In this document: piece after piece, positions 1-31,690 of the stretch
Numbering within the stretch: the first letter of the stretch is position 1
Layout of the letters: the number at the start of each line of letters is the position of its first letter
DNA from: a virus
Taxonomy: Duplodnaviria; Caudoviricetes
Virus record (IMG/VR): IMGVR_UViG_2595698517_000001
Span: 1 to 64,000 of that record
Length of the DNA: 64,000 nt
Strand: one strand, 5' to 3'
Position numbers and translations under genes: made by a program
The notes under the pieces: model-generated
The model's database searches: none
What the model saw: only the letters and a program-made list of their open reading frames with translations
What the model was told of the DNA's origin: nothing

Positions 1-36
1 ACTAAATCTCCTCCTAATATTCAATTGTGTAACTGA

Positions 37-109
37 TAGGGCTAGTAGGAGTCGAACCTACGACCTTGGGCTTATGAGACCCACGCTACTACCACTGAGC
101 TATAACCCT
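37..109 (-). tRNA. tRNA with CAT anticodon (elongator Met or Ile2)
   Basis: Acceptor AGGGTTA/TAGCCCT, anticodon arm TGGGT-CTCATAA-GCCCA, T loop GGTTCGACTCC. Confidence 0.9.
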
Positions 110-113
110 GTAT

Positions 114-197
114 TGGCAGGGGAGGAGGGAATCGAACCCCTTAGCGGTGGTTTTGGAGACCACTGACTTACCTCTCGTCTTTAAGCTTCTCTCCCCC
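114..197 (-). tRNA. tRNA-Trp(CCA), atypical long D region
   Basis: Anticodon arm GTGGT-CTCCAAA-ACCAC, T loop GGTTCGATTCC, encoded CCA; D region about 24 nt. Confidence 0.75.
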
Positions 198-253
198 ATA
201 AAAAGGGACAGGTGAGCAACCTGTCTGTAAACTTTGCAAAATCAACGAATTAA

Positions 254-326
254 TACCGAAGGTGGGACTCGAACCCACACTGTACGGTTTCTAAAACCGC
301 TATCTCTGCCATTGGATTACTTCGGC
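254..326 (-). tRNA. tRNA-Leu(TAG), short variable arm
   Basis: Acceptor GCCGAAG/CTTCGGT, anticodon arm GCGGT-TTTAGAA-ACCGT. Confidence 0.85.
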
Positions 327-331
327 ATATT

Positions 332-419
332 TGGTAGCGGAGGGGGGACTCGAACCCACCACGCCCATACGGACATAGCATTTTAAGTGCCATATGTCTA
401 CCAATTCCAACACTCCGCC
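332..419 (-). tRNA. tRNA-Leu(TAA)
   Basis: Anticodon arm TGGCA-CTTAAAA-TGCTA, long variable arm, CCA end. Confidence 0.9.
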
Positions 420-434
420 ATAATTTAATTTATT

Positions 435-511
435 TGGTACTAGGGGTAGGATTTGAACCTACGACCAATGCCTTATCAAGACACTGCTCTACCTGACTGA
501 GCTACCCTAGC
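435..511 (-). tRNA. tRNA-Ile(GAT)
   Basis: Anticodon arm GTGTC-TTGATAA-GGCAT, CCA end. Confidence 0.92.
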
Positions 512-512
512 A

Positions 513-599
513 TGGTGGGAAAGGCAGGACTCGAACCTGCAATGTATCTTACGTCACGGTTTTACAGACCGCTTGCTTCACCAATTTGCATACTCGCCC
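513..599 (-). tRNA. tRNA-Tyr(GTA)
   Basis: Anticodon arm GCGGT-CTGTAAA-ACCGT, long variable arm, CCA end. Confidence 0.92.
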
Positions 600-722
600 A
601 AAAAATCTCCTTCTCTTTTCCGTGGAGAAGGAGCAAAAAATATTGAAAGGAGAAAGAAATATGAAAATCAAACAAAAAAGTTTTGAGGGTTGACCCTAAG
701 ATTCGCACCTTCAGATCAACCA
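600..722 (-). ncRNA. Candidate sRNA in tRNA spacer (5' stem, anti-RBS/anti-AUG stretch, 3' hairpin plus U tract)
   Basis: Stem 688-695/714-721; minus strand reads UUUUCAUAUUUCUUUCUCCUUUC; 9-bp hairpin 607-615/625-633 followed by a T run. Confidence 0.35.
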
Positions 723-738
723 TGATACAAAGGGAATA

Positions 739-814
739 TGGTGGACGGAGTAGGGATCGAACCTACGACACGAGGATTTTCAGCCCTCTGCTCTACCAAC
801 TGAGCTATCCGTCC
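739..814 (-). tRNA. tRNA-Phe(GAA)
   Basis: Anticodon arm GAGGG-CTGAAAA-TCCTC, CCA end. Confidence 0.93.
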
Positions 815-929
815 ATAATGGGGATACCTTGAACCTGTATACTCAGGTATCCTAAGTTTTAACCTACTTCGATTGACACGGGACGCATCCCTGTAGGAGG
901 TAATTGTGAAAACCATAAACATAAACAAA

Positions 930-1004
930 TGCGGGTGGCAGGACTTGAACCTGCGACTTCTTGCTCCCAAAGCAAGCGCTCTAGCCAATCTGAGCTACAC
1001 CTAC
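930..1004 (-). tRNA. tRNA-Pro(TGG)
   Basis: Anticodon arm CTTGC-TTTGGGA-GCAAG. Confidence 0.9.
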
Positions 1005-1046
1005 ATAGTATATAACCCTATTTAAGGGACTCAATGCATTGAGTAA

Positions 1047-1118
1047 TCAGGATGAGGGGAATCGAACCCCTATTCAGTGATCCACAGTCACTTGCGTTAA
1101 CCGTTACGCCACACCCCG
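1047..1118 (-). tRNA. tRNA-His(GTG)
   Basis: Anticodon arm AGTGA-CTGTGGA-TCACT. Confidence 0.88.
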
Positions 1119-1201
1119 TAAACTAAGCCCAATACGTCTGATCGTCTGACTGGTAGGCATGTTATTGGACTTAGTTTACGAAGTACGGAACTTCGTGTTT
1201 A

Positions 1202-1272
1202 CTTCGGAGGATGGTCTCGAACCACCGATCATAGAGTCAAAGTCTATTGCCTTACCACTTGGCTACTCCGAA
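1202..1272 (-). tRNA. tRNA-Gln(TTG)
   Basis: Anticodon arm ATAGA-CTTTGAC-TCTAT. Confidence 0.9.
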
Positions 1273-1289
1273 AAAGTGTTTGTAAAGAG

Positions 1290-1318
1290 ATTGTATCATA
1301 GTCTGTAACTTTGTACAA
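1290..1318 (-). promoter_or_regulatory. sigma-A-type promoter inside tRNA cluster
   Basis: TTGTAC-N17-TACAAT with TG extension and AT-rich upstream tract. Confidence 0.6.
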
Positions 1319-1350
1319 CCCTATTTTTAAAATTTTTTGAAAATATTTTG

Positions 1351-1442
1351 TGGCGGAAGGAGTGGGATTCGAACCCACGCACGCTTTTACACGCCTAGCG
1401 GTTTTCAAGACCGACCTCTTTTATCCACTTGAGTACCCTTCC
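1351..1442 (-). tRNA. tRNA-Ser(TGA)
   Basis: Anticodon loop CTTGAAA, long variable arm, GCCA end. Confidence 0.92.
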
Positions 1443-1447
1443 ATAAA

Positions 1448-1522
1448 CATCCCATGTAGGACTCGAACCCACGATTAACGGGATAGAAGCCCGTTGCCTT
1501 GATCCAACTTGGCTAATGGGAT
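1448..1522 (-). tRNA. tRNA-Arg(TCT)
   Basis: Anticodon arm ACGGG-CTTCTAT-CCCGT. Confidence 0.9.
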
Positions 1523-1603
1523 AAAAAGGGACAGGTTTTTTCGTTGCCTGTCACAACGTTCCCTACCCTTTTGTATACCGTCTCAGAGGGATAACGGATA
1601 TTG

Positions 1604-1677
1604 CTCCCCTTGGAAGATTCGAACTTCCGATTCGCAGGACATAATCCCACTGCCTTGAACCGCTTGGCTAAAGGGGC
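1604..1677 (-). tRNA. tRNA with TAT anticodon (nominal Ile-AUA), atypical
   Basis: Anticodon arm GTGGG-ATTATGT-CCTGC, T loop AGTTCGAATCT, G1-A72 mismatch. Confidence 0.65.
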
Positions 1678-1680
1678 GGA

Positions 1681-1754
1681 AAGGGTATAAGGGATTCGAA
1701 CCCTCGTATCTCCGATAGAAAGTCGGATGTGTTTGACCACTTCACCAATACCCC
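1681..1754 (-). tRNA. tRNA-Glu(TTC)
   Basis: Anticodon arm TCCGA-CTTTCTA-TCGGA. Confidence 0.9.
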
Positions 1755-1883
1755 ACGATGGGAAAGGTTAGTTTCGTTTTTAATTTCGGACACCTTTCTA
1801 ACATAAAACTTCTACGAACATTGACTCGTGCAAGGCATTACCCCTGCTGTATACTCGCAGAATAAAAACGTATTAAGTCCTAA

Positions 1884-1954
1884 CGAGGTATAGGGGAGTT
1901 GAACCCCTGACTCTGCATAGACAGTGCAGTATTTTACCACTAAACTAATACCCC
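1884..1954 (-). tRNA. tRNA-Asp(GTC)
   Basis: Anticodon arm CTGCA-CTGTCTA-TGCAG. Confidence 0.9.
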
Positions 1955-1959
1955 ATGAT

Positions 1960-2035
1960 TGGAGGGACATGTCGGAATCGAACCGACCTCCCCTGGTTGG
2001 AAGCCAGGAATAATGAACCGATATACTAATGCCCC
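1960..2035 (-). tRNA. tRNA-Gly(TCC)
   Basis: Anticodon arm CCTGG-CTTCCAA-CCAGG, TCCA end. Confidence 0.9.
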
Positions 2036-2041
2036 CTATTT

Positions 2042-2132
2042 TGGCGGAGAGTACAGGATTTGAACCTGTGGTACGTTAAGGACGTACACCTATTTAGCAA
2101 ACAGGCACGATAAGCCACTCTGACAACTCTCC
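2042..2132 (-). tRNA. tRNA-Ser(GCT)
   Basis: Anticodon arm CCTGT-TTGCTAA-ATAGG, long variable arm, GCCA end. Confidence 0.92.
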
Positions 2133-2146
2133 ATAAATTTAATAAA

Positions 2147-2542
2147 TTAACTAATGGACATAAAACCTACCTTATAACAATCATATTTAGCAGTTAAGCT
2201 TAATTGATTTTTCTGTGTAACAACATCTTTAGGTATTTGGTACATTGTCCCTGATCCTGTTGCTACAAACAGATAGTCTACAGTAGAGTCCTGAAAGTTT
2301 TTAATTTTCTTAACACCTGTTGTAGAACTGGTTATAGTTCGTAGATAGACCTGATACATCCCATTATCACTTGTCGCTAAAGAAGTTTTAACTTGTACCT
2401 TCTTTAACTCGTTGTTAATATCGGCAATTAGGTCGTAGTCTTGGTTATCATTTAACGGTATGGAGACGTTATACCCTTTAGAAGTATAGTAGCCTATAGC
2501 CATACCTACACCGATATTACCTTTTTGAATTGGTGTCATCAT
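2147..2542 (-). CDS. PD-(D/E)XK endonuclease (PDDEXK_5 / I-Ssp6803I-like homing endonuclease family)
   Basis: KGNIG...GYNVSIPLNDNQDYDLIAD...KVQVKT motif; RBS GGAGGT. Confidence 0.8.
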   Translation of the reverse strand: MMTPIQKGNIGVGMAIGYYTSKGYNVSIPLNDNQDYDLIADINNELKKVQVKTSLATSDNGMYQVYLRTITSSTTGVKKIKNFQDSTVDYLFVATGSGTMYQIPKDVVTQKNQLSLTAKYDCYKVGFMSIS

Positions 2543-2618
2543 ACGATTATACCTCCCTATATGTACTATAGAGAGAAACGGTAGGAGCTTACCCTACACT
2601 TTAGTCTTTTCTCATGAT

Positions 2619-2693
2619 TGGCGCTCCTGGGTGGATTCGAACCACCGACCAACAGCTTAACAGGCTGCTGCGCTACCGCTACGCTACAGGAGC
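2619..2693 (-). tRNA. tRNA-Asn(GTT)
   Basis: Anticodon arm GCAGC-CTGTTAA-GCTGT, GCCA end. Confidence 0.92.
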
Positions 2694-2706
2694 AATATTT
2701 GATATA

Positions 2707-2780
2707 AGAAAGTGGTGGGATTCGAACCCACGAAAACTAGGGTTGCAATCTAGCCCGTTAAGCCACTTCGGTACACCTTC
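2707..2780 (-). tRNA. tRNA-Cys(GCA)
   Basis: Anticodon loop TTGCAAC, U discriminator. Confidence 0.88.
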
Positions 2781-2806
2781 ATGTTAGTTCCCCTGAGAAA
2801 ATTAGA

Positions 2807-2858
2807 ACGCAATCTGCAAGGTTTTCACGGGAGGGGAGCCACAGCTTGCAGATTGCGT
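2807..2858. repeat. Perfect 14-bp inverted repeat with 24-nt loop
   Basis: ACGCAATCTGCAAG (2807-2820) / CTTGCAGATTGCGT (2845-2858). Confidence 0.9.
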
Positions 2859-3079
2859 ATTAAGTTATAGAAGGAAGTATATAGGATCACCGTTTCCATA
2901 GGGTCACTATCCTTTTTCTCCTAATATTGATACTGGTGTGTGTTTACTGTTGTATCAAAGCCTAGTTATAGTATAACACACTCTGTACGATTCTAAACAT
3001 ACATATACAAAGTTTTTTAACTTTTTTCATTTATTTCTTGACTGGTAATTCATTTCCAATTTCGGACGTCTAACTATTA

Positions 3080-3552
3080 TTAATATTTTATAATAAGTTA
3101 TATAAGTATTTAATAATAATATACAGAACAGTTATAAATATAATAGTACATAAATTCCCTCTTTTTTGTCCTATTTAAATTTAAAATAAATAACCCTGAA
3201 ACAGGTGTCAAGATAGAACTATAATCTCTTCAAGCATTGATATAATAAGGTTTGTCAGGATATATGTTTGAACAATGTAATGGATCAGGTTAAACTTAAT
3301 GGTACATATTTAAGTTATTTTTGTCCTATTTAAATTATAACTCTGTCCTATTTATTATTTTACTTATTAATAATAAGTTATATAAGTAATTAATAATATA
3401 AATACAGAAGGAATAAAATTATAATATGTCAAGTTAGATTGTAATAATAACTATAAACCCCTTTGTATCAAGGGATTTAAATAGGTCAAAATAGTTTATA
3501 CACTTAGGGATAATAGGTCAGGAATAGGGGACTGTATAAAATAGGACAAAAA
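3080..3552. repeat. AT-rich non-coding region with TGTCCTATTTA direct and inverted repeats and a duplicated TAATAAGTTATATAAGTA block
   Basis: TGTCCTATTTA at 3167, 3322, 3344; inverted AATAGG(T/A)CA near 3480, 3512, 3540; duplicated block at 3091 and 3371. Confidence 0.75.
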
Positions 3553-3567
3553 TTTTTAAAGTGGTTG

Positions 3568-3596
3568 TTGACAATTAAACAACAAACTGATAAGAT
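3568..3596 (+). promoter_or_regulatory. sigma-A promoter for XRE regulator
   Basis: TTGACA-N17-TAAGAT with TG extension. Confidence 0.75.
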
Positions 3597-3681
3597 GAGG
3601 TCAAGATAAACAAACGACAACTAATCGTTCAGATTGAATATAAAGTAAGTTGTAAAATGTGACAAAACAAAATTAAGGGAG

Positions 3682-3969
3682 ATGTTTACAATGACAAATA
3701 AGAAAGCAGCTAAAAGCACATCAAGACCAAAACGAATGAAGAAATACCGTATGGACAAAGGATTAACGATTTATGATCTAGCGAAACGATTAGGTGTCGA
3801 TCACTCTTCAATTTGTAACTGGGAGAATGGTCAGAAGTACCCAAGACGTGGTAACTTAATGGCATTAGAAGATGTATTAGAAGCAAGTTACAGGGAGTTA
3901 TTCGAAGACTTAACACCTGAAGAAATTGTAGAAATTGACGATCGTAGATACAAAAGGGGGCAAGCATAA
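3682..3969 (+). CDS. XRE-family helix-turn-helix transcriptional regulator
   Basis: RMDKGLTIYDLAKRLGVDHSSICNWENGQKYP HTH_3 pattern. Confidence 0.9.
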   Translation: MFTMTNKKAAKSTSRPKRMKKYRMDKGLTIYDLAKRLGVDHSSICNWENGQKYPRRGNLMALEDVLEASYRELFEDLTPEEIVEIDDRRYKRGQA

Positions 3970-4163
3970 TGCATGGAACAGTAGCGTGTCCGTTTTGTAA
4001 CAACGAACAGTATGTAGAGTTTAATACTAATGGTAGGTGGGAACGACCTAAGTGTGCTGACTGTGGCAGCATATTTTATGCACAAGCCATCATGTCATTT
4101 GCTTCACAGCCGATTTCACAATGTAAAGAAGTAACGCCAACTTATATATGTCCCAAGGAATAA
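3969..4163 (+). CDS. Small zinc-ribbon protein
   Basis: CPFC and CADC; coupled TAATG overlap. Confidence 0.65.
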   Translation: MHGTVACPFCNNEQYVEFNTNGRWERPKCADCGSIFYAQAIMSFASQPISQCKEVTPTYICPKE

Positions 4164-4195
4164 AAAGAGAGACTAGGGAATCCCTGGTCTCTTTT
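4164..4195. terminator. Bidirectional intrinsic terminator
   Basis: GAGACTAGGGA-A-TCCCTGGTCTC-TTTT hairpin between convergent genes. Confidence 0.7.
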
Positions 4196-4427
4196 AGTAT
4201 TTTGGTACCATTTTTACAATCATCTGCGGGTTGATAAAGTAAAAGTCCCCTGACATATCTTCCATCGGATTCACTTTCATCATTGGTGCTCCGCTACCTT
4301 TAATGTAGTTACCTACAATCGAATCAGGAGCGTCAGGTACACCGAACGTGTTAAAGATTTCTAACGGTACATATGCTTTCTCGTTTAAAATTGTAGTGAC
4401 TTCCACTGACTTTAATTGTCTAGCCAT
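4194..4427 (-). CDS. Hypothetical protein
   Basis: ORF with RBS AAAGGA. Confidence 0.7.
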   Translation of the reverse strand: MARQLKSVEVTTILNEKAYVPLEIFNTFGVPDAPDSIVGNYIKGSGAPMMKVNPMEDMSGDFYFINPQMIVKMVPKY

Positions 4428-4443
4428 TTAAAATCATCCTTTC

Positions 4444-4770
4444 TTAGTGCTTGCTTGCCAAGCTGAAGATATAACTGATAAGTCCTCCAAGAACAACCAT
4501 CAGTGCGTTTTCAACAAGCTTACGTTGTCTGTCATCCCCTTTTTCATCCTTTGCTTCTAGGTCTTCTAGCTCCTGCTCTAGATGCTCGATTCTGTAAAAG
4601 AGGTGGGACTGTTTTTCTTCACTGATTGCCATTTTCTTATCAATATCTTGTACGATACCTTTAAGCTCATCGACAACCTTCTTCAGTTCAGCAGCGCTGT
4701 TTTCACGCTCTTGGAGAGTAGACTCAATTTCTTGTAGTTTTAATAATGCTTGTTGGTTGCTGTTATTCAC
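4444..4770 (-). CDS. Coiled-coil protein with C-terminal TM helix
   Basis: Heptad pattern then LVENALMVVLGGLISYIFSL. Confidence 0.75.
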   Translation of the reverse strand: MNNSNQQALLKLQEIESTLQERENSAAELKKVVDELKGIVQDIDKKMAISEEKQSHLFYRIEHLEQELEDLEAKDEKGDDRQRKLVENALMVVLGGLISYIFSLASKH

Positions 4771-4792
4771 TGAAACCCCACCTTTCTGCTAT

Positions 4793-5152
4793 TTACCATA
4801 TAAATCCTTTTCTTTTTTGTACCTTCTCATAACCCACATCGAAATGCTCCAAAAACTGTACCAGTACTTCTTTGCTTTCCTCATCTTCTACCTGCCCGTA
4901 CTGCGATTCTGTATTAATGGTAAACCGCACCTTTCCATCCTGCTTTAAGTCTAATTCGATTCGAACCCAATCCTTTTGATCTGATTCTATGTAATGAAAT
5001 GTAAAGTCGATTAGAAGACCTAATGACAATAATCTGTGTATCGTATACGTATGGTGGCTTGTCCTATTGCTATTAATCATATTGCTCACTAGGTCACGAA
5101 ATTCTGCCTTTAAATTAGGTTGCTGCTTACTCCCTACTCCGTTCATCTCCAA
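4793..5152 (-). CDS. Hypothetical protein
   Basis: ORF in operon, RBS GGAG. Confidence 0.7.
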   Translation of the reverse strand: MEMNGVGSKQQPNLKAEFRDLVSNMINSNRTSHHTYTIHRLLSLGLLIDFTFHYIESDQKDWVRIELDLKQDGKVRFTINTESQYGQVEDEESKEVLVQFLEHFDVGYEKVQKRKGFIW

Positions 5153-5432
5153 TCTCCTTTCGTTCGCTATTACTCGTTAGGGCAGTCGTAACTAGCACAA
5201 GTAGTAAACCGTTTTTGATCGTGATGGTTTGGTACATCCCGCTTCGAAAGAGGATAATATCTGATATAATAGAGATATACACTAATATGATGAATGCTAG
5301 AGCCTTCAGTGTTGGGAACACTAGTCTGAATAGTAATCCCTGGTGCAGGATAGACACTGTTATATACGACATATAAGTAACAATGACATAGAAGACAAGG
5401 GTTAAAATGACGGACGCAATCAAATAAATCAT
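5127..5432 (-). CDS. Membrane protein
   Basis: Three hydrophobic segments, RBS GAGGG. Confidence 0.75.
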   Translation of the reverse strand: MIYLIASVILTLVFYVIVTYMSYITVSILHQGLLFRLVFPTLKALAFIILVYISIISDIILFRSGMYQTITIKNGLLLVLVTTALTSNSERKEIGDERSRE

Positions 5433-5534
5433 TGTTTTCTACCCTCTTTGTCTTATTTATCCCTACTAATATAGAACTTTATAGCGTGTTTTTTGCAATA
5501 TCTTCTATATTAGAGATATAAAAATTTTTCTCAA

Positions 5535-5828
5535 GTGGAGGTTATGTCAATGTTGAAGTATAACAAGCAGATGCACATGAAGGTTATTCTCATTCTTCTA
5601 GCAGAAGCCTTAGCCATCTTGATTACAGACTTTGTATCAGCGAATATCGTTCCGATTGAACACACAACTATAACTTATATTGTATGTGGAGCGGTTTTAG
5701 CTTTAGCTGTAGTCAGTTCGTATGATTATATTATACGTAAAGGCGCTATGCGTGCTCAACAAGAGCGACAGGATTTACTGAATACAGCCATGCTTCGCTA
5801 CAGCACAAAGCATAGAGACCACAGATAA
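5535..5828 (+). CDS. Membrane protein (2 TM)
   Basis: RBS GGAGG; first gene of terminase operon after TATATTA motif. Confidence 0.75.
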   Translation: MEVMSMLKYNKQMHMKVILILLAEALAILITDFVSANIVPIEHTTITYIVCGAVLALAVVSSYDYIIRKGAMRAQQERQDLLNTAMLRYSTKHRDHR

Positions 5829-5839
5829 CAGGAAGGCAG

Positions 5840-6361
5840 GTGCTTCAAATGTTTGGATTATCAGAAAAAGATTTCGATGAGTTCAGAGACTTAGCACAGG
5901 ATTTTGCAGTGGAGGAATTAACACCAACTATTCTAAGTGAAGCAAAATTAATTACAATGTTAGTTGAGAAGGACGGGAAATTAGTACCTATTCCTTCGCA
6001 TATAAACAAGATGCTCTCTGATCTAGAAACAATTATCACGCTAACTACAGTAAATATGGCATGTGACTATGCAGACCTGGTTACAAAATTAGAATTAAGT
6101 GAAGCGGATATTATTAAGCACTTGCACGAAAAGTACGAGATTTACGTAACGAACCAGTTTATAAAATACTGTCTATGTTTCACTACTGAAGCGTCCGATC
6201 GCATTGTAGGCGAAATTATCCTGGAACTTCCGTATCTGTATGTAGATGCGATTAGTGATGAGGAGTTCGATGGGGACAAGTACTTGGAAGACAAGCTAAA
6301 AGCATACAATGACTACCTGGACAATAACCCAGTATTCAGTGAGGAAGACGAGGAAGAATAG
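5840..6361 (+). CDS. Hypothetical acidic protein
   Basis: ORF in terminase operon. Confidence 0.75.
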   Translation: MLQMFGLSEKDFDEFRDLAQDFAVEELTPTILSEAKLITMLVEKDGKLVPIPSHINKMLSDLETIITLTTVNMACDYADLVTKLELSEADIIKHLHEKYEIYVTNQFIKYCLCFTTEASDRIVGEIILELPYLYVDAISDEEFDGDKYLEDKLKAYNDYLDNNPVFSEEDEEE

Positions 6362-6371
6362 GTGAACTAAA

Positions 6372-6662
6372 ATGGTGACGAAAAAAGAGGTTGTAAGCAA
6401 AAGGCGGAAGCTTATGAGTCTAGCCGAAAAAAGTCACTCATTTAATAAAGGAGACAAGAGGGTGCATACTCCAAGGGTATGTGTGGTGTGTGGTCGCCCT
6501 CTATCCTCTTTGATTATTAATGAGAATAAGTACATAATTATACAGGCTCATACCCGCTATCATTTAAACGAATTGTTTATTGTAGACGCTTGTACAGACA
6601 TTACATCGTGCTACAGAACATTAAGGCAGAAAGGGGAGCTGATTGAGAATGTCAATGGCTGA
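6372..6662 (+). CDS. Zn-binding hypothetical protein
   Basis: CVVCGRPL...CTDITSC. Confidence 0.75.
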   Translation: MVTKKEVVSKRRKLMSLAEKSHSFNKGDKRVHTPRVCVVCGRPLSSLIINENKYIIIQAHTRYHLNELFIVDACTDITSCYRTLRQKGELIENVNG

Positions 6663-7068
6663 CAACATTAGAAACGGTATTAACAAGAGAAAGCAAGCAT
6701 TCGACAGTGAAAAGGAGCTTCGAGATGTTTTAAACTCTGCTTTGTCAAAGGGTGTAATGAAATTTATGCAGCGCATGGACGCAGGTGAAATTCCGATCGA
6801 TAACATTGCAGACCTACATCGTGTAGTTGGACTATACAAAGAGATGAATGGAATCGCAGACGTTATGGATGGTCAAGGTATGTCAGGTACGCTTCCTGAG
6901 ATTAACATGCGCCAGGATCAGGTACTAGATGAGAAGATTCGTGAAGGTAAAATGACAACAGATGAGGAAGGCAAGGTTAATGTCATGGACATGACCGCAG
7001 AAGAGGTTGCAGACTTAATCAGAGACTTCGACATAGCACAGAACAAAGAAAATGAGGGAACATTCTAA
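6643..7068 (+). CDS. Probable terminase small subunit
   Basis: Translationally coupled directly upstream of terL; size and position typical of Herelleviridae. Confidence 0.6.
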   Translation: MRMSMADNIRNGINKRKQAFDSEKELRDVLNSALSKGVMKFMQRMDAGEIPIDNIADLHRVVGLYKEMNGIADVMDGQGMSGTLPEINMRQDQVLDEKIREGKMTTDEEGKVNVMDMTAEEVADLIRDFDIAQNKENEGTF

Positions 7069-24099: not shown

Positions 24100-25278
24100 A
24101 TGGAGATTATTAATAGATACAACCTACAGGTTCAACCATACAAAGACGGAGATAAGAAATGGCAGTCTACCCGTGCAGATAAAGCTACACGTTATGGTCA
24201 CTTTGAAGTGGACAAGCTAGGTACAACATTAGACATGAAAGAAAGACGTACGATCGAACTTTTAAAGATGGCACTACAGCGTGTACAACGCCCTGTATTA
24301 TCATGCAGCTTTGGTATCGACTCTATAGTCCAGTTATACTTAACTCGTAAGGCACTAGCTGAACTAGGCAGAGACCCATCGGACGTAGATATTATTTGGA
24401 ACGATACAGTAAACGAGTTCCCTGAAGTCTGACAATTTGCAAAATTCCTAACTACAGAGTGGAACTTACGACTGACAACAACGAAGCCGAAGCGATCCCT
24501 GAAGAAGATTATTGACGACAACGGAGGTATAACATCCGACTATTTCACAGCTCGTAAGGGTGCTAGACAACATGGTACACCGCTTAGTGAGAAATGCTGC
24601 GGCACATTAAAGCACGAACCAATGAAGAGAGCACTTAAGGAGCATACCTGGGACTTAATCATCGTAGGGTTACGTGCAGACGAATCCTCACAACGTAAGA
24701 TCGCAGGATTACGTGACGGAGAGTTCTTCTACTCAGTCCAGGAGTGGAAAGCCTTAGTTGTCAGACCTATCCTATGGTGGAACGAAGAAGACATATGGAA
24801 CTACGTAGAACAAGAGAAAATCCCTTATAGTGACATATACAAGAAGAATATGATTAAGAACTATCCTGATCCTAAAACGTTAGAACGAATTATAGACGAG
24901 CATAGACTGGTACTTACAGCAGTAGGTATAGACGTGGAACAGCTTAAAGAGCAGCAAATACAAACCGTTACACGTAGACAAGCTATGCTACTCAAGAAAC
25001 TAAAGTTTAGCATGTTCACTCCAAGGGTAGGCTGTATGATGTGCCCTATTCCCGTGAAGTATGGTTACATGCAATGGATGCGTACATATTATCCAAAGGT
25101 CTACAATGCAATGGTACATAACTTAGGATACGGTAAAGCTCTTCTCGATATGATCCCACAAGACGTACAGGACGAGATTAAGGAGTTTACTGGTATAGAC
25201 ATAACTGCTGAGAACGCACATGAACACCTAAAGGAAATCCTAGAAGCGAAACCGTGTACGTTTGACAGCTTCGATTGA
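24100..25278 (+). pseudogene. PAPS-reductase-family protein interrupted by a single in-frame TGA at 24430-24432
   Basis: SCSFGIDS PP-loop, DT..EFPE, then in frame after the stop CCGTLKHEP, GLRADES..R, RPILWW, RVGCMMCP. Confidence 0.85.
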
Positions 25279-25283
25279 TTATC

Positions 25284-25311
25284 AAGTCCCCTCCCTGGGG
25301 GCTTTTTATTT
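25284..25311 (+). terminator. Intrinsic terminator
   Basis: AAGTCCCC-TCCCT-GGGGGCTT followed by TTTATTT. Confidence 0.7.
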
Positions 25312-25409
25312 TGCCCACTACTTACAACTATATTGTATTATATAAATAATAGGATGCAAAGGTGGTACCCTTTTAAAATTTTTGGGTATTATTTTGTGGT
25401 CGGTTGTGG

Positions 25410-25645
25410 CTCATACTGGGCTCTCAGTTTGCTTCCTGTTGCTCTCTACGGGTGCTTATCATGTATTTCTATGTGGGGCTTCGTATGGGGCTTACACGGG
25501 GCGCTAGGGGCTTCTAGTCGGTACTTCCTATGTGAGCTCCTTATGTGAGCCTACTGGGTGCTTATTATGGGGCTTCCTATAGGGGCTTTTCATTGGGGCT
25601 CCATGATCGGGCTTATTGGGAGGGCTGCGTAGGGGCTACTTAGGT
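25410..25645. repeat. Degenerate tandem (TAT/TAG)GGGGCT repeats
   Basis: About 14 variants such as TATGGGGCTT, TAGGGGCTT, TATGTGAGC, CGGGTGCTTAT. Confidence 0.7.
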
Positions 25646-25775
25646 ACCATGACCCCCCGTTTAAGATACCTTCATATTTCACCCTAAAAAATTTTTTGGA
25701 AAAATTTGAGCCTGGGGTAGACCCCTGGTGGGGGGTGGTGCGTCTATATGGTAAAAAATGGTACGGGGTGGGGTC

Positions 25776-25792
25776 TGTCGAATGGTGTCGAA
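25776..25792 (+). promoter_or_regulatory. Tandem Spo0A-box matches
   Basis: TGTCGAA-TGG-TGTCGAA in intergenic DNA. Confidence 0.55.
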
Positions 25793-25826
25793 AAATAGTT
25801 CTTGACAAACAGAAAAAAAGTGACCC

Positions 25827-26138
25827 CTAAATGAAGTCACTCTGTTTGTGTCCTGCTTCTTTCATCGCTCTATCATATCTATCATAACTAGAATTATTAT
25901 ATGTTTTAAACTCTTCACTCTCTTCTAGTTCCTTGTATACATCTTCCAAGCGTTGCTCTGCTTCTATATCTGTCTTGAACCCATCTTCAAAGAGTTCACA
26001 CTCATGACCTAGCGCCCACTCACTAGGGCTATCTCCGTTACCTTCTAGCCACTGTACTTCCACCTCTTCCCCTTCCTCACCAAGGTTTCTTAATACGTTC
26101 TTCCATTCATCTACTGTTAATCGTTTCATATTATACAC
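25827..26138 (-). CDS. Early acidic hypothetical protein
   Basis: RBS AAGGAG. Confidence 0.75.
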   Translation of the reverse strand: MYNMKRLTVDEWKNVLRNLGEEGEEVEVQWLEGNGDSPSEWALGHECELFEDGFKTDIEAEQRLEDVYKELEESEEFKTYNNSSYDRYDRAMKEAGHKQSDFI

Positions 26139-26169
26139 GCTCCTTATATCGTTTTATTTAAATAGTTTA

Positions 26170-26424
26170 TTAATTGTGGTCTTCCTCGAAAAGCTCCTGC
26201 ATGATGATGCATATATTATCCTGGTTGTCAATCACTAAGTTTGTGTTGTTAGGTAGATTGCATAACCCTAATACATCATGGAATTGTTCTACTCTAAACC
26301 CGTTGTCGTGCTCTATATATAAATCTTGTTCAACCCGTGCCCATTCACCTTCATTAGTGACCACCGCATCCAAGTAAATATTAATCCCGTTATTATCATA
26401 GTAAACAGATATTAATTTAGTCAT
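26170..26424 (-). CDS. Early hypothetical protein
   Basis: RBS AGGAG; flanked by ~31-bp direct repeats. Confidence 0.75.
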   Translation of the reverse strand: MTKLISVYYDNNGINIYLDAVVTNEGEWARVEQDLYIEHDNGFRVEQFHDVLGLCNLPNNTNLVIDNQDNICIIMQELFEEDHN

Positions 26425-26437
26425 ATCTCACACGCTC

Positions 26438-26710
26438 CTATATCGTTTTATTTAAATAGTCAATCAGTGCAGGGCATTCAATAGACCTATCATTCACTAA
26501 CTCGCCTAGTATATCCTTTGTTAACGTGCCAATTTCCAAATACATTTCCACTGTAAATCCTGGGCTTTCCTTCCCCTGCATAACCTCTATACAATCGGTT
26601 GCTAGTGTGTACGTATCAAAGGTGACATATCGCACCTGTAGCCCTTTACGTGGATGCATACAATATATACGTATACTATACATATTTATTCCCCTTTCTG
26701 TATATAACAA
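26438..26710 (-). CDS. Early hypothetical protein
   Basis: Internal RBS AAAGGGG suggests a slightly downstream start. Confidence 0.7.
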   Translation of the reverse strand: MLYTERGINMYSIRIYCMHPRKGLQVRYVTFDTYTLATDCIEVMQGKESPGFTVEMYLEIGTLTKDILGELVNDRSIECPALIDYLNKTI

Positions 26711-27075
26711 CGCTTGTTGACAAAATATATTTCTTGTGCATGGTTGACAATATCTCCATTCTGTGCTTTGAACTTCTCATGTGTATATGGATTGTAGTAC
26801 ACCTCTTCTGTGAGGTGGCTCGGTTTCTCTATATCAACCCCTAAAAGTATTCCAGTTACCCACGCATGAACCCGTTTACGCTTGCTTTCTAGAATCTTTT
26901 TACGACCTGATTCCCCTACATGGAATTTACCGTCTGCCAGGTGCACAGTTTCCGCATACGCTACCACAAGCCCGCTTTTAGCGTCTACTAGTGAAAACCT
27001 TCCTTGCTGATTCAAGTTAACATATACTTTGACCTTTTGACCTGCTTCTACTGTGCGACCTTTGACCAATTCCAT
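26686..27075 (-). CDS. Conserved phage hypothetical protein
   Basis: VKVYVNL...RKRVHAWVTG...YYNPY; RBS AGGAGG. Confidence 0.8.
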   Translation of the reverse strand: MELVKGRTVEAGQKVKVYVNLNQQGRFSLVDAKSGLVVAYAETVHLADGKFHVGESGRKKILESKRKRVHAWVTGILLGVDIEKPSHLTEEVYYNPYTHEKFKAQNGDIVNHAQEIYFVNKRCYIQKGE

Positions 27076-27087
27076 TTGTACAACCTC

Positions 27088-27303
27088 CTAGTTATTTTCC
27101 AATTCGAACCGAACTTTTTCGGCTAGTATAGTTATATCAATTGCTTTCAACTTCATATCGCTTTTAAGATGGCTATTAGCCCACGTAACCCCGTTATCTA
27201 TCAGTTGGGATACATTCCCCTCTGTTAGCTCCATATCGCTGTTAGCGTCTTCTACAGCGCTGTAGAATACCATGTCTAGAAACTGCCTTCTCTCATCGCT
27301 CAT
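27088..27303 (-). CDS. Early hypothetical protein
   Basis: ORF in co-directional array. Confidence 0.65.
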   Translation of the reverse strand: MSDERRQFLDMVFYSAVEDANSDMELTEGNVSQLIDNGVTWANSHLKSDMKLKAIDITILAEKVRFELENN

Positions 27304-27408
27304 ATTACCGCATCCCCAATACTATTAAGTGTGAATAGAGTACAAGCAAACCATATAATGCAAGCCCACAAACTAGAACCTTTAGCGAACCTCTTCCAAA
27401 CTCTTTCA

Positions 27409-27798
27409 TCAATAGTTTTCCTCCTGTTCTTCCCACTCTTCATAGTCGGCTTGTGCGTCCTCAATATTATCTTCATGTAGTCGAACATACTCGACTAGTT
27501 TTTCCGTATCGAATGCATAGTCTACATCTTCCATAACATAATATTCTTCATGGCTACCAATTAACACCAGTGCATAATTTTCAGCTATTTCCAGGCGGAA
27601 AATATCACTCACATATTCGCTAGTCATCTTCCCGTTTTCATCGAATACTTGAAAGGCTATCATATCACTAGTTTCAAACTCGTAACCTTTCCACTTGCCT
27701 TCTGTATCCTGGTATTTTCTAACAAACTTGATAGTAGTGTCGCTGCCTTCCCCGTTAACAATTTGACCGATACTATTAATAATTTTCATAGTGTACAC
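27409..27798 (-). CDS. Early acidic hypothetical protein
   Basis: RBS AGGAG. Confidence 0.75.
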   Translation of the reverse strand: MYTMKIINSIGQIVNGEGSDTTIKFVRKYQDTEGKWKGYEFETSDMIAFQVFDENGKMTSEYVSDIFRLEIAENYALVLIGSHEEYYVMEDVDYAFDTEKLVEYVRLHEDNIEDAQADYEEWEEQEENY

Positions 27799-27846
27799 GC
27801 TCCTAATATTTTTTAGTGGTGACGGGGAACAAGTCCCCGCCTGGTG

Positions 27847-28155
27847 TTAGTTTTCTACTACAAAGAATACTTCTTCTTCTTCTTCATCATAAGCGACTGC
27901 CCACAAGCGACCGTCTTCAGTGATAGCGAAATATGATAGATAAACGCCTTCATGCTCGTAGTCCCCGTTACAAATGTTATACATTGCGTAGTCGCCTGAA
28001 GATACATAAGCAAGCCCTAATCCTTCAGCGTTTGTTAATAATGCATCATCATGATACATTTCGTCAATGATAGCGTCAATCCCGTAAAGCTCAACGTTTG
28101 ACATCTCTTTTTTAAAGCTCGCAGTTGGGTTATAAGAAGTTTGATATAATTTCAT
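27847..28155 (-). CDS. Early acidic hypothetical protein
   Basis: RBS AAGGTGG before MKLYQ. Confidence 0.75.
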   Translation of the reverse strand: MKLYQTSYNPTASFKKEMSNVELYGIDAIIDEMYHDDALLTNAEGLGLAYVSSGDYAMYNICNGDYEHEGVYLSYFAITEDGRLWAVAYDEEEEEVFFVVEN

Positions 28156-28194
28156 TTTAGTTTCCACCTTTTCATTTTTAGTTTTTTTTATCAT

Positions 28195-28210
28195 TGTTTC
28201 ACATGAAACA
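28195..28210. promoter_or_regulatory. parS-like palindrome
   Basis: TGTTTCACATGAAACA, 15/16 to parS TGTTTCACGTGAAACA, intergenic. Confidence 0.65.
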
Positions 28211-28212
28211 TT

Positions 28213-28656
28213 TTATAGATTATTGCGTAAACAGTCACCAAGGTGTACAGGCGTATCGTATATAAAGAAGTACGGGTTGTTCTCGCCTGTTTCCTCTTCC
28301 TCGTGGTCTTTAGTTTCTGAGATGAAGAATACCTTTTCCCCGTCTTCCTCTACGTATCCAAAAACCTTTCCATCATCGGATATGTCAATGACCTGGAATC
28401 CTGTACCGTTAACCGCATCATATGCAACCACTGGTTTTTTACCTGCTGAGAACTCCAACCATTGTTCTAAGATTGGGTGGTTTTCCAGGTCGTATTTCAA
28501 CCCGTTTAAATCATGCTCATTAGTAACTTCTAAGTTGTGATAGATGTCGCTTTCATCAGTTGTTTCTGCTAGGTAAAACTTTAATGATGTAAGTAACCCC
28601 GCTGCTGTATTCAATTCTTTTTCCCCACATTTGATATAATCCATTTTATATTCCAC
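28213..28656 (-). CDS. Early acidic hypothetical protein
   Basis: RBS AAAGGTGG, own promoter upstream. Confidence 0.75.
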   Translation of the reverse strand: MEYKMDYIKCGEKELNTAAGLLTSLKFYLAETTDESDIYHNLEVTNEHDLNGLKYDLENHPILEQWLEFSAGKKPVVAYDAVNGTGFQVIDISDDGKVFGYVEEDGEKVFFISETKDHEEEETGENNPYFFIYDTPVHLGDCLRNNL

Positions 28657-28697
28657 CTTTACGATTTAGTTTGGCGTTGCTTTATGTTTCTGTAATC

Positions 28698-28726
28698 ATT
28701 ATCTCATCTTGTTTTCTAAAAGTCAA
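28698..28726 (-). promoter_or_regulatory. Early sigma-A promoter with conserved spacer
   Basis: TTGACT-TTTAGAAAACAAGATGA-GATAAT. Confidence 0.65.
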
Positions 28727-28735
28727 CAACATTTT

Positions 28736-28969
28736 TTAATTTGTTTTTCCTTCTAGTGAATGCCAGTAAAAATGTTTGTAAGCGATTGGCGTTGTAATCG
28801 TTCCGCCTGCTAATTCATCCGCTATGACAACCGCCTGGTCATTTATAGAAAGAATCTTTCCATGATAGCGGTATGACTGCTTTCCTTCAGTGGTGCAGAT
28901 GGTTACCGTATCACCAACTTGTGCAGCAGCTTTAAACTTCTGAATGCCTTCATTGTTCATGTTCGGCAC
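28736..28969 (-). CDS. Early hypothetical protein
   Basis: RBS AAAAGGAG. Confidence 0.7.
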   Translation of the reverse strand: MPNMNNEGIQKFKAAAQVGDTVTICTTEGKQSYRYHGKILSINDQAVVIADELAGGTITTPIAYKHFYWHSLEGKTN

Positions 28970-29013
28970 GCTCCTTTTATTTAGTTGTTTGTGTGTTCCC
29001 TTATCTGTCTCTT

Positions 29014-29042
29014 ACTTTACATGATTGTTTTCTAAAGGTCAA
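29014..29042 (-). promoter_or_regulatory. Early sigma-A promoter with conserved spacer
   Basis: TTGACC-TTTAGAAAACAATCATG-TAAAGT. Confidence 0.65.
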
Positions 29043-29112
29043 CAACAAAATGCAAATTTCTTTAAAAAACTTTTCCTTCTATTATAGGGAAAATAAATCA
29101 TTCCAACGTCCT

Positions 29113-30110
29113 AGTTATCAGAATATTCAGTGTATTTAACTTTTTGAATGTTCTGATCCGACTGCTGAGACGATCGTAACTATATCGTAAAATTAGAATT
29201 AAAAAATTGTCTGAATATTCTGTAAATGGTGCTCTCACCCACGATCCAAATTATTGTCTTAATTTTCAGAATTGTCAGAATACTTAGAATAGTCATAATA
29301 GTAACTACATTTAGTCTATAGGATATAGGCAAAATACAGCCCAGGTTATACAGTCCTATGATTCATTTTAAGGCACCCAGGAGCCCGCACACGGGTTTTT
29401 ACGCTCCATCCCTAACAAGTGTATTACCTAGACCGCTAGAAACGCACCTGGGCAATTTGAGGTAGTAAAACCCACCTATACCAGGCGTTTAGAAATTGTC
29501 AGAATATTCTGCTCATTATACACATTATAATTATCTGACAATTAGTTTCATACTTTCAGCGATATGTCAAGTAAACAGTGTATTCTAAATATTCTGACAA
29601 TTGGAGCAGGGCTATACCATACACGACACGCTATGTCAAGTTAAAAGTATATTCTGAATTGTCAGTCAATTTAGTTTCATGTATATACCCAACTGTCAAG
29701 TAAAAAGAATATTCAGTCAATTCAAAATCATAAATATAGCACGATGTCAAGTAGTTAATATATTTAGAATAGTCTGACAATTATACGTGCAGCTGCTACC
29801 ACATATAATAGCTAGTGTCAAGTTAATAGTTTATTCTGAATTGTCAGTAAATTATAATCATTACAAGATGATACTATATGCAGAATATTAAATAGTCAGT
29901 CAATTTAGAATCATGAATATAGTATAGTGTCAAGTTAATTATATATTCTGAATTGTCAGTTAATTTTAATGATTCTAAAGTAAGAGCCTATATAGTATAC
30001 AGAATAGTCTGACAATTATAATTAGTATAGTTATCTGAATTGCTTAAATATTCTGACAATTGATTACACGGGCTCCTGGTATTTATAATTGACGAAATAT
30101 TCTGACAATT
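29113..30110. repeat. Non-coding array of CodY-box-like 15-mers with interspersed TGTCAAG elements
   Basis: AATTGTCWGAATATT / AATATTCTGACAATT variants at 29113, 29205, 29261, 29270, 29494, 29529, 29588, 29657, 29708, 29768, 29839, 29891, 29951, 30003, 30047, 30096. Confidence 0.85.
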
Positions 30111-30138
30111 TTCCTCGGGCGGCTCGTCCAATCCTGGT

Positions 30139-30294
30139 GCAGGGAGCTACTAGCAATTTCGACCTTTTTGCAGGGAGCTACTAAGGTTTTCAGACTTGGC
30201 GCAGGGAGCTACTAGTAAATTACCCCTATAAAAGAAACTCCCTACTTGGTGCAGGGAGCTACTTACGTTTTACTATATGGTGCAGGGAGCTACT
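30139..30294. repeat. Five exact direct repeats GCAGGGAGCTACT
   Basis: Starts 30139, 30170, 30201, 30251, 30282 (periods 31, 31, 50, 31). Confidence 0.95.
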
Positions 30295-30580
30295 AGAGTT
30301 CCTTGACAATTGGTACGAATGTTGGATCAAGTACGTTGTATATATCCTCTGCGTCTTCCCCTGTGATCTCATTCAGTATAGCTGCCGCTGCTTCAAACAC
30401 GTCTAGCTTGACCGTACGGTTCTTTGAACGCTTCCAACCCTCATTACCTAGCTTCCATTCTACGATCGCTATATAAGCTTGTCCTTTAAGCGTACAGTGT
30501 ATAATATCATGTCGTACCTTATCAGACACCTTAACCTCTCCTATTTGTACCTCTGTGTCCCATTTAAACTCTTTAGCCAT
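30293..30580 (-). CDS. PC4/YdbC-like ssDNA-binding protein (tentative)
   Basis: Beta-strand pattern LKGQAYIAIVEW...GWKRSK...VKLDVF then helix; RBS AGGAGGAG. Confidence 0.55.
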   Translation of the reverse strand: MAKEFKWDTEVQIGEVKVSDKVRHDIIHCTLKGQAYIAIVEWKLGNEGWKRSKNRTVKLDVFEAAAAILNEITGEDAEDIYNVLDPTFVPIVKEL

Positions 30581-30887
30581 TCCTAACTCCTCCTATCCAA
30601 TTCTTAGCGATCACATTATGTGTCTTCATACCATAAGACTCAGTTACCTCTTCAGTCAGTACTAGCACATTATAGTGTGTTTGTAGCATATGATTAACTA
30701 CAGTCTTACTAGCAAGCCTATGACGACCTATAATACCTGGGCTATCCTTCCATACTACAAACTTATCAGTAGTACCTGCCATACGTACGAATACTATATG
30801 GGCACTAAAGGCACCTGCGAATCTGCGATGCATTAAGTCCATATCAGTCTTCTGATCCTGCGCCTTCTTACGGAACCAACTAAGCAT
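30573..30887 (-). CDS. Hypothetical protein
   Basis: RBS GGAGGGG, coupled. Confidence 0.7.
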   Translation of the reverse strand: MLSWFRKKAQDQKTDMDLMHRRFAGAFSAHIVFVRMAGTTDKFVVWKDSPGIIGRHRLASKTVVNHMLQTHYNVLVLTEEVTESYGMKTHNVIAKNWIGGVRNG

Positions 30888-31105
30888 TACTCCCCCTCCT
30901 TGTATACTACAAACTCATTTGCAAGGAAGTAATTAAGTCCTGCCCCTGCTACTCTAATTTCCTTACTAGGGCTATCCAATTCCATTACCCATAAGCGATT
31001 ACCACTAATACAATAAGCACATATGTTAGAACCTTTAGCTACAAGCCAATTAGTCTTCATTTTCTCAAGAGCAGCGAATCCTTTATACGTCTTCTCGTTT
31101 TCCAT
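30887..31105 (-). CDS. Hypothetical protein
   Basis: RBS GAGGAG. Confidence 0.7.
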   Translation of the reverse strand: MENEKTYKGFAALEKMKTNWLVAKGSNICAYCISGNRLWVMELDSPSKEIRVAGAGLNYFLANEFVVYKEGE

Positions 31106-31247
31106 TACGTATCTCCTCAGCTTCCTGTTTAAGTTTAGCTATCCTGGCATCAGTCTCCTGCTTCTGCTTCATAAAACGTTCGTAGTCCGCTTGAGATAGC
31201 TTAGGTCTCTTACGTCTAGGTACTGCATAGTGAACCCACTCACGCAT
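31083..31247 (-). CDS. 54-aa hypothetical protein not in ORF track (MREWVHYAVPRRKRPK...)
   Basis: RBS AGGAGG; fills gap between neighbours. Confidence 0.6.
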   Translation of the reverse strand: MREWVHYAVPRRKRPKLSQADYERFMKQKQETDARIAKLKQEAEEIRNGKREDV

Positions 31248-31259
31248 ACTATATACCTC

Positions 31260-31508: not shown

Positions 31509-31690
31509 ACTATAACCTCCCCTCTATATACTCTATATACTACAACACTGTATACCCACAGTCAACAACTAATTAGCAAATAAACACATATACTATACAT
31601 ATAACGGGAAATATAAGCATATAATACTCATTTATCCTCAAATAACGCAAAAAAGAACTGCCCCGTTAAGAGCAGCCCTTATACTATGTA

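Follow-up and report, generated by a model that had tools for sequence, protein, structure and literature searches.

Sites resembling those of Spo0A, ParB/Spo0J, and CodY in the long terminal repeat of a Tsarbombavirus myophage

Introduction

Can a large lytic phage of a spore-forming bacterium read the starvation and sporulation state of its host through sites in its own DNA? This question is raised by positions 25776-30294 of IMG/VR virus record IMGVR_UViG_2595698517_000001, where motifs matching the sites of three host master regulators, Spo0A, ParB/Spo0J, and CodY, occur within 4.5 kb. The DNA that we analyzed (here called the window) comprises the initial 64 kb of this one-contig phage genome of 156,176 bp. 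A preliminary description of the window had placed tandem 0A boxes, a parS palindrome, and an array of CodY boxes in a putative terminal or early region and had proposed that together they form an extended version of the phi29 arrangement, a module that chooses between lysis and entrapment in the spore. To our knowledge, the mechanism by which a lytic phage becomes entrapped in spores is understood for phi29 only.

In this study, we have located the region within the long terminal repeat (LTR) of a Tsarbombavirus myophage and have compared its motifs with those of relatives. The presence of conserved motifs of this kind suggests, short of proof, that the virus senses the approach of its host to sporulation. 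How far each motif class supports that reading, and which other explanations compete with it, is considered below.

Results

The stretch from 25300 to 30400 matched 29 phage records by megablast, the best of which were all from Tsarbombavirus (Bastillevirinae, Herelleviridae), phages of the Bacillus cereus group. Nine relatives were compared (MarvelLand, PBC6, BC01, TsarBomba, 0524phi7-1, QCM8, BC-T25, Emiliahah, and McCartney); since PBC6 and BC01 are nearly identical, the independent lineages number fewer than nine. Homology to annotated LTRs bore out the terminal or early assignment: positions 25776-30294 are the inner two-thirds of the 6.27-kb LTR of a Tsarbombavirus myophage. The LTR spans approximately 25715-31982, both of its boundaries having been mapped from the records of relatives. 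The left boundary, at about 25715/25716 between GAGCCTGG and GGTAGACC, was drawn from QCM8 (repeat_region 1..6731), from position 1 of 0524phi7-1, from the repeat annotations of Mater and phiAGATE, and from an alignment with the LTR of Goe3, whose length of 4,954 bp was established by primer walking (PMC5490822). The right boundary, near 31982 between AAACACAAAACCT and GGGG, is where position 1 of the TsarBomba record maps, and it agrees with the terminus 5'-AGGTTTTTGTG of Q8-like phages (PMC5418689). The contig plus one repeat (156,176 + 6,268 bp) comes close to the 162,486 bp of TsarBomba.

All three site classes were found again within this repeat, and terminators, stop and start codons, and the annotation of relatives confirmed that each of them is intergenic. 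The features on which the argument rests are as follows.

25658-25775, unstranded: conserved LTR-boundary block, from CGTTTAAGAT through CCTGG/GGTAG to TATGGTAAAAAATGGTACGGGGTGGGGT, with the boundary at about 25715/25716
25776-25792, plus strand: tandem perfect 0A boxes TGTCGAA-tgg-TGTCGAA (TGTCGAAtggTGTCGAA) with a 10-bp period
28195-28210, unstranded: parS-like palindrome TGTTTCACATGAAACA, matching 15 of 16 positions, in an intercistronic spacer
29113-30110, unstranded: array of 16 CodY-like 15-mers with a consensus of their own, AATTGTCAGAATATT / AATATTCTGACAATT
29565-29935, plus strand: six TGTCAAGT motifs, many units having a -10-like hexamer at -12 to -7
30060-30089, plus strand: conserved rightward promoter of sigma-A type, TTGATT-18-TATAAT
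30090-30096, plus strand: single 0A box TGACGAA directly after the -10 element, at the -10/+1 junction
30096-30110, plus strand: CodY-like box AATATTCTGACAATT at about +1 to +15

The 0A consensus is a 7-bp core, TGNCGAA, with the optimum TGTCGAA (PMC2731898, PMC3485338), and a consensus 0A box predicts Spo0A binding across genera, even in Clostridioides (PMC3485338). The two boxes of the tandem start at 25776 and 25786, are 3 bp apart, and both match the optimum; the pair begins 61 bp inside the LTR boundary, between convergent terminators. In phi29 and Nf, Spo0A protects box pairs with the same 3-bp spacing, and phi29 Spo0A sites lying about 30 bp away from the ends of its DNA block replication (PMC2731898). 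No other TGNCGAA-N3-TGNCGAA occurs in the 156,176-bp genome at zero or one mismatch, and among 3,000 mononucleotide shuffles of the genome any TGNCGAA tandem appeared in 32 and a perfect TGTCGAA tandem in 6. The tandem is present in all nine relatives. In an alignment of 10 Tsarbombavirus sequences, none of the 14 box positions changed, whereas two positions of the 3-bp spacer (TGG, CCG, and CGG) and the flanking bases did. On balance, we slightly favor the view that Spo0A binds this site in vivo.

The 0A pair lies at the right edge of a boundary-straddling block of about 150 bp that has matches in 72 phage records. A scan of IMG/VR for an anchor within this block, ATGG-N10-11-ACGGGGWGGGGT, returned 63 loci representing 44 distinct sequences, 29 of which had neither a 0A nor a CodY-like motif; most of these look unrelated. 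Among the anchors of Bastillevirinae type, the motif that follows varies by genus. The tandem 0A pair is found in two distinct sequences, from Tsarbombavirus, and a single TGTCGAA directly after the anchor is found in five (Mater, with TGTCGAAactTGACGAC; three that are Goe8-like; and one contig with an inverted second box). The CodY-like motif GTCWGAYAATT follows the anchor in eight, with one close variant outside the search pattern, and these represent genera infecting B. subtilis and B. pumilus, plus Caeruleovirus, which also carries GTCGAATTGTCGAA about 30 to 40 nt beyond and so has a consensus TGTCGAA box at about 40 nt. The recurrence of 0A and CodY-like motifs beside LTR ends fits either host-factor modules at genome ends or sites of a phage protein that handles the LTR.

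The CodY-like array far exceeds what shuffling of its own sequence predicts: 16 sites with three or fewer mismatches to AATTTTCWGAAAATT were observed, and Markov-shuffled versions of the array contained 0.14 +/- 0.37 sites, never more than 2 among 500 versions. Genome-wide there are 31 such sites, and the 15 outside the array are near expectation (12.7 +/- 4.3); at two or fewer mismatches, 7 of 12 sites in the genome are in the array. The array is within a 1.3-kb stretch annotated as noncoding in most relatives and is found in all nine. At three or fewer mismatches, there are 16 sites in the window, 11 in QCM8, 18 in 0524phi7-1, 17 in MarvelLand, 14 in TsarBomba, 19 each in PBC6 and BC01, 11 each in BC-T25 and Emiliahah, and 8 in McCartney, whose record ends there.

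The geometry of the boxes resembles that of known CodY sites. A partner motif with five or fewer mismatches was found at +/-9 bp for 13 of the 16 boxes, and the mean number of mismatches was 5.8 at offset -9 and 7.7 at +9, compared to 7.3 to 11.9 at the other offsets tested. CodY sites overlap with this 9-bp geometry, and CodY reads DNA shape and tolerates two to five mismatches (PMC10415144). The boxes come within 1 nt of tATTaTCTGAcAATT and AATTgaCAGAAtATT, the proven motifs of the strong site II of braB (PMC4608796), and AATATTCTGACAATT is identical to a predicted thrC CodY box in Streptococcus salivarius (PMC5966866). The array boxes have G5/C11 in their own consensus. That CodY binds these boxes in vivo is a possibility that falls just short of what we would call probable.

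Many units of the array also have a promoter-like element. In 33 distinct units from nine genomes, a plus-strand -10-like hexamer tends to lie at -12 to -7 before TGTCAAGT, and the -35 elements are weak in most of them. Two identities for TGTCAAGT were rejected. It is not a weak 0A box, because the change of G5 to A lowers Spo0A affinity about 10-fold (PMC3485338), and it is not the -35 element of minus-strand promoters, because a -10 element at 16- to 18-bp spacing is missing. The consensus motifs of TnrA, Fur-family regulators, Rex, LexA, PlcR, and ScoC did not fit the array repeats either.

At the right end of the array, the promoter at 30060-30089 is conserved. Its -10 element TATAAT is kept in the window and in seven of eight relatives (GAGAAT in MarvelLand), the -35 element takes the forms TTGATT, TTGACT, and TTGTCG, and the spacer sequence varies across the window and the eight relatives. 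The 21 positions that follow (30090-30110), which hold the single 0A box and the last CodY-like box, are invariant in all eight relatives whose records extend there. These boxes, located in what would be operator positions of a conserved promoter, lend partial support to a role for host factors. The predicted transcript would run antisense to the outer LTR genes. In 25200-32600, the promoter scan gave 36 matches compared to 23.9 +/- 6.0 expected, a modest enrichment. No match to the SigF, SigG, SigE, or SigK promoter patterns was found in 28970-30300, and the putative rightward transcript at 30096-30310 was predicted to fold no more stably than shuffled sequences (z = +0.67).

The parS-like palindrome differs from the 16-bp consensus TGTTNCACGTGAAACA (PMC7022226) at one position, a central G that is A in the window. 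It is the only site in the genome with two or fewer mismatches, and a site with one or fewer arose in 43 of 3,000 genome shuffles. It is flanked by a TAA stop codon at 28213-28215 and by the start of the next gene at 28155, which is supported by a ribosome-binding site (RBS). Scans of whole records found parS in six of the nine relatives, once per LTR and nowhere else, so that it is unique in each of seven genomes. The sites of QCM8, 0524phi7-1, PBC6, and BC01 are identical to that of the window, Emiliahah has TGTTCCACATGAAACA, and MarvelLand has a perfect 16/16 match, TGTTTCACGTGAAACA; the variable positions are only the consensus N and the central base. By blastp, the palindrome persists although its neighbors change (at least three unrelated genes on the downstream side and two on the upstream side), within a conserved core that reads CTATAAAA followed by parS on the mRNA strand. 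The exact central-A variant occurs in multicopy clusters on many bacterial contigs (at least 132 stretches). A search of IMG/VR with a 24-mer of parS plus TTTTATAG returned five loci in unrelated contexts and was uninformative. As an RNA hairpin, the palindrome is weak (-4.2 to -4.7 kcal/mol). Binding of Spo0J to this site in vivo is a genuine possibility, although we would not put it ahead of its negation.

The phage genome gave no match to ParB_N, Spo0A_C, or HTH_CodY, with each control search positive in B. subtilis; a protein of those families acting at these sites would therefore be that of the host. The SigF/SigG-like factors and the ParM/FtsK module that the preliminary description had linked to the sites are encoded in the window, together with YhbH-like and DUF3603 proteins.

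20036-20827: DUF3603 protein
22781-23770: YhbH-like protein
52771-55044: FtsK-like translocase
57757-58863: ParM-like actin
59280-60980: SigF/SigG-like sigma factor
61002-61742: SigF/SigG-like sigma factor

The open reading frame (ORF) at 59280-60980 would encode 566 amino acids, with the SigF/SigG-like domain at residues 7-263 and a C-terminal part of about 300 residues that had no family match.

The remaining features of the repeat are listed here.

25817-25843, minus strand: terminator-like hairpin closing the leftward early operon
25827-28969, minus strand: leftward early operon of about ten small genes, ORFs without a Pfam or PHROGs function
28726-28698, minus strand: promoter-like site TTGACT-17-GATAAT
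29042-29014, minus strand: promoter-like site TTGACC-17-TAAAGT
29300-29490, unstranded: conserved, GC-richer nonrepeat island within the array region
30139-30294, plus strand: five GCAGGGAGCTACT copies at spacings of 31, 31, 50, and 31 bp, downstream of the rightward promoter
30293-31982, minus strand: outer LTR genes and the right LTR boundary, at position 1 of the TsarBomba record

The genes of 25776-30294 are all on the minus strand, and none could be assigned a function with Pfam or PHROGs. The promoter region at 28677-28735, which contains TTGACT-17-GATAAT, has 93% identity to an annotated repeat_region in Bc431v3, a phage of another genus, and a near copy is located at 29025-29047; it looks like an early-promoter cassette shared between genera. 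Two early genes are separated at 27815-27840 by a strong GC-rich intercistronic hairpin (-14.7 kcal/mol, z = -3.7) that lacks a U-tract, and similar hairpins are present at other gene junctions in relatives. In the array region, a second tandem 0A-like pair, on the minus strand with one mismatch per box, was seen in MarvelLand, TsarBomba, PBC6, and BC01, and an extra single TTCGACA was seen in QCM8, MarvelLand, and BC-T25; the window array has neither. Within the island at 29300-29490, blocks such as AGCCCGCACA and ATACCAGGCGTT are identical in nine sequences. The island had no Rfam match, and in 29250-29500 only 3 of 40 pairs had a compensatory change, with an unfavorable covariation term.

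Four to five copies of GCAGGGAGCTACT are retained in eight of the nine relatives. Each copy has an AGGGAG core, which is Shine-Dalgarno-like (GGA), and the final copy shares bases with the stop codon of the gene at 30293-30580. Similar GGGGCT-type repeats (for example, TAGGGGCTTC and GTAGGGGCTACTTAGG) are located at 25330-25650, just outside the left LTR boundary, and GGGGCTCTAG is found at the right boundary (31980-31995); these boundary repeats may be packaging or boundary signals.

Elsewhere in the window, 18 tRNA genes are clustered on the minus strand at 37-2780. The gene at 24100-25278, which encodes a protein like phosphoadenosine phosphosulfate reductase, equals the intact 1,179-bp PBC6 gene in length and is 98% identical to it without indels; one in-frame stop at codon 111 (24430-24432) divides it into ORFs 24100-24432 and 24622-25278. 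An Rfam search of 25000-33000 at an E value of 1 or less gave only a subthreshold snoRNA match, GC skew followed gene orientation and gave no origin signal, and no public sequencing run was found to contain this phage (best share of sampled words, 0.23); the runs yielded contigs of relatives only, from which neither termini nor transcription starts nor evidence of transcription could be read.

Discussion

We propose that the motifs of all three classes act in cis as sites for global regulators of the host, which would couple the development of the phage to the state of the cell. The tandem 0A pair would bind a dimer of phosphorylated Spo0A with high affinity; it is located 61 bp from the genome end or packaging boundary, where binding upon commitment to sporulation could hinder replication or end processing. 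In the conserved rightward promoter, the third 0A box would act at the -10/+1 junction. The parS-like site would load Spo0J/ParB of the host and tie the phage genome to the origin segregation machinery that is captured in the forespore; with one parS per LTR, there would be two per virion DNA. The CodY-type array, which overlies promoter-like repeat units for about 1 kb, would make transcription there dependent on nutrients. A tentative proposition, to which we give somewhat less weight than to its failure, is that two or more of the three classes are genuine host regulator sites affecting development. Binding, the direction of regulation, and the link to spore entrapment are all inferred.

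Several results weigh against this proposal. Single TGTCGAA boxes show no genome-wide enrichment (13, compared to the approximately 20 predicted by base composition), the promoter scan found no promoter at the tandem pair, and no 0A box follows the anchor in the genera infecting B. subtilis and B. pumilus. Because the pair lies in a block of about 150 bp conserved for LTR-boundary function, its invariance may serve a phage protein. Nowhere in the genome is there a site with one or fewer mismatches to AATTTTCWGAAAATT; the canonical CodY half-site AATTTTC occupies 2 of 76 arms and is never the preferred arm; and TGTCAAGT is located 23 bp before the CodY-like box in five of six units, a fixed partner. 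The CodY-like element of Goe3 is confined to the LTR (at 87, 1781, and 4873 of 4,954 bp), and it is near both LTR ends in Goe3 and phiAGATE. As for parS, no site with two or fewer mismatches was found in TsarBomba, BC-T25, and McCartney, three of the nine relatives, or in Mater, and the majority form, that of the window, has the central mismatch. In TsarBomba and BC-T25, a GC-rich hairpin lies upstream of the same downstream gene family, and the parS slot may therefore need just any hairpin.

One alternative is that the 0A-like and CodY-like motifs are sites of phage proteins that define, replicate, or package the LTR, for example, a small terminase, an end-synapsis protein, or an origin protein, and that their likeness to host sites is coincidental or partial. 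Phages with direct terminal repeats usually have arrays of short repeats beside the repeat junctions; the 0A pair abuts a boundary anchor found across the Bastillevirinae, and the slot after that anchor holds a CodY-like element in other genera. Of the Goe3 elements, the two outermost, in inverted orientation, are 87 bp inside the outer end and 81 bp inside the inner boundary of the LTR, with one between them; the Tsarbombavirus array has its own G5/C11 consensus and its fixed partner; and GGGRGCT-type repeats flank the LTR boundaries. However, among 15 LTR products no DNA-binding protein could be identified with Pfam or PHROGs, two perfect 0A boxes at the Spo0A spacing are rare in shuffled genomes, and the CodY-like boxes are nearly identical to proven CodY motifs and share their 9-bp overlap. 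Sites number 3 per LTR in Goe3 and 8 to 19 in the Tsarbombavirus arrays, and since the LTRs of Mater and Goe8 have no CodY-like element, the element is not a universal LTR requirement. We regard this explanation as rather unlikely. It is less likely still that the array is a set of tandem promoter-like units for early or antisense control, or for a transcription-primed origin, in which the repeats are operators or iterons for an unnamed factor; such an arrangement may leave the 0A and parS motifs as real host sites. The conserved sigma-A promoter, the -10-like hexamers before the invariant TGTCAAGT, the regular spacing of the units (about 50 to 110 bp), and the difference in unit number between relatives would all be accounted for, but the -35 elements of most units are poor, the enrichment of promoter matches is modest, and GC skew gives no sign of an origin.

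The parS-like palindrome could also be explained without Spo0J, as an intercistronic RNA hairpin or a conserved junction between modules that serves recombination. It occupies a slot made up of a stop codon, a hairpin, an A-rich tract, and an RBS, in which other junctions hold hairpins, such as that at 27815-27840; its conserved core takes in the last codon and the stop codon of the upstream gene, CTATAA; and the T-to-C change in Emiliahah preserves a G-U pair on the mRNA strand. Its absence from three relatives and the GC-rich hairpins of TsarBomba and BC-T25 point the same way. Yet the parS hairpin itself is weak, a hairpin does not need a 15/16 or 16/16 match to parS, which few shuffled genomes contained, and the positions that vary are those least constrained in parS. 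The hairpin or junction explanation is, in our estimate, unlikely, though it deserves consideration alongside that of Spo0J binding.

If the motifs are host regulator sites, a further step would be to see them as one LTR module through which a strictly lytic myophage reads all three regulators, an independently evolved switch between lysis and entrapment that resembles that of phi29 but adds nutrient sensing. It can be envisioned that CodY and Spo0A boxes gate rightward promoters antisense to the early genes that enter first, that the end-adjacent Spo0A dimer site blocks end replication or packaging once sporulation begins, and that parS loaded with Spo0J pulls the arrested phage DNA into the forespore; the 16-box array, whose dose rises with the number of genome copies, may titrate CodY and so derepress starvation genes of the host. 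We consider this complete switch improbable. All three motif classes named in the preliminary description stand: the 0A tandem is perfect, genome-unique, and kept in every relative; the CodY array far exceeds expectation and is equally conserved; and the 15/16 parS palindrome is unique at two or fewer mismatches. As to conservation of the sites together, the relatives retain two classes throughout and the third in six of nine; the lack of conservation that would have counted against the description was thus not observed. The extended module that was built on these sites holds in part: site conservation, the encoded proteins, and the boxes in operator positions are consistent with it, but the 0A pair is away from any promoter, parS is missing from three relatives, and the CodY-like boxes depart from the consensus.

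Among known systems, that of phi29 and Nf, in which 0A boxes are combined with parS sites, comes closest. In both cases, a lytic phage of a spore former has paired TGTCGAA boxes 3 bp apart, a Spo0A-type site tens of base pairs from the genome end, and a site of parS type, and encodes neither ParB nor Spo0A itself (PMC2731898). Unlike phi29, a 19-kb podophage with protein-primed replication, the phage studied here is a 156-kb myophage of the Herelleviridae with LTRs; it has one parS per LTR, compared to five sites in phi29, its tandem 0A pair is away from early promoters, and its CodY-like array has no phi29 counterpart. SPO1, which belongs to the same family, forms virospores, and as cis sites that report gives only four intragenic 0A boxes, a chance-level number (PMC12991052).

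Compared with CodY operators such as braB site II, hutP, and ureA of B. subtilis, the array is similar in having 15-mers with two to three mismatches, partners offset by 9 bp, boxes within 1 nt of tATTaTCTGAcAATT and AATTgaCAGAAtATT, and one box at about +1 to +15 of a promoter. It differs in that sixteen boxes extend over 1 kb of noncoding phage DNA with regular spacing and an TGTCAAGT partner, the canonical half-site is almost unused, and an element related to it is found beside LTR ends in other genera. The general concept, that a lytic phage carries sites for a cell state regulator of its host, is also that of the CtrA boxes in phages of Alphaproteobacteria, described as lytic deferment (PMC9437464); there, the regulator and hosts are different, whereas here up to three regulators may be addressed in one terminal repeat. 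In SPO1-like or Bastillevirinae phages, the LTR boundaries have a 0A pair or, in other genera, a CodY-like element directly after the conserved anchor, and for neither the anchor nor the modules behind it was a published function found in the searchable literature. Likewise, no paper describing these sites for Tsarbombavirus or Bastillevirinae was found in the open literature, to which the search was confined.

In conclusion, if the motifs prove to be sites of phage proteins, the genus-specific modules behind an anchor shared across the subfamily would define the LTR-processing signals of the Bastillevirinae. If they are sites of host regulators, the link to CodY would be new for any phage, within the literature searched. 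The conserved intergenic 0A boxes, parS, and CodY-type array would provide mutable handles on the sensing of starvation and sporulation by large Bacillus phages, which include candidates for biocontrol of the B. cereus group.

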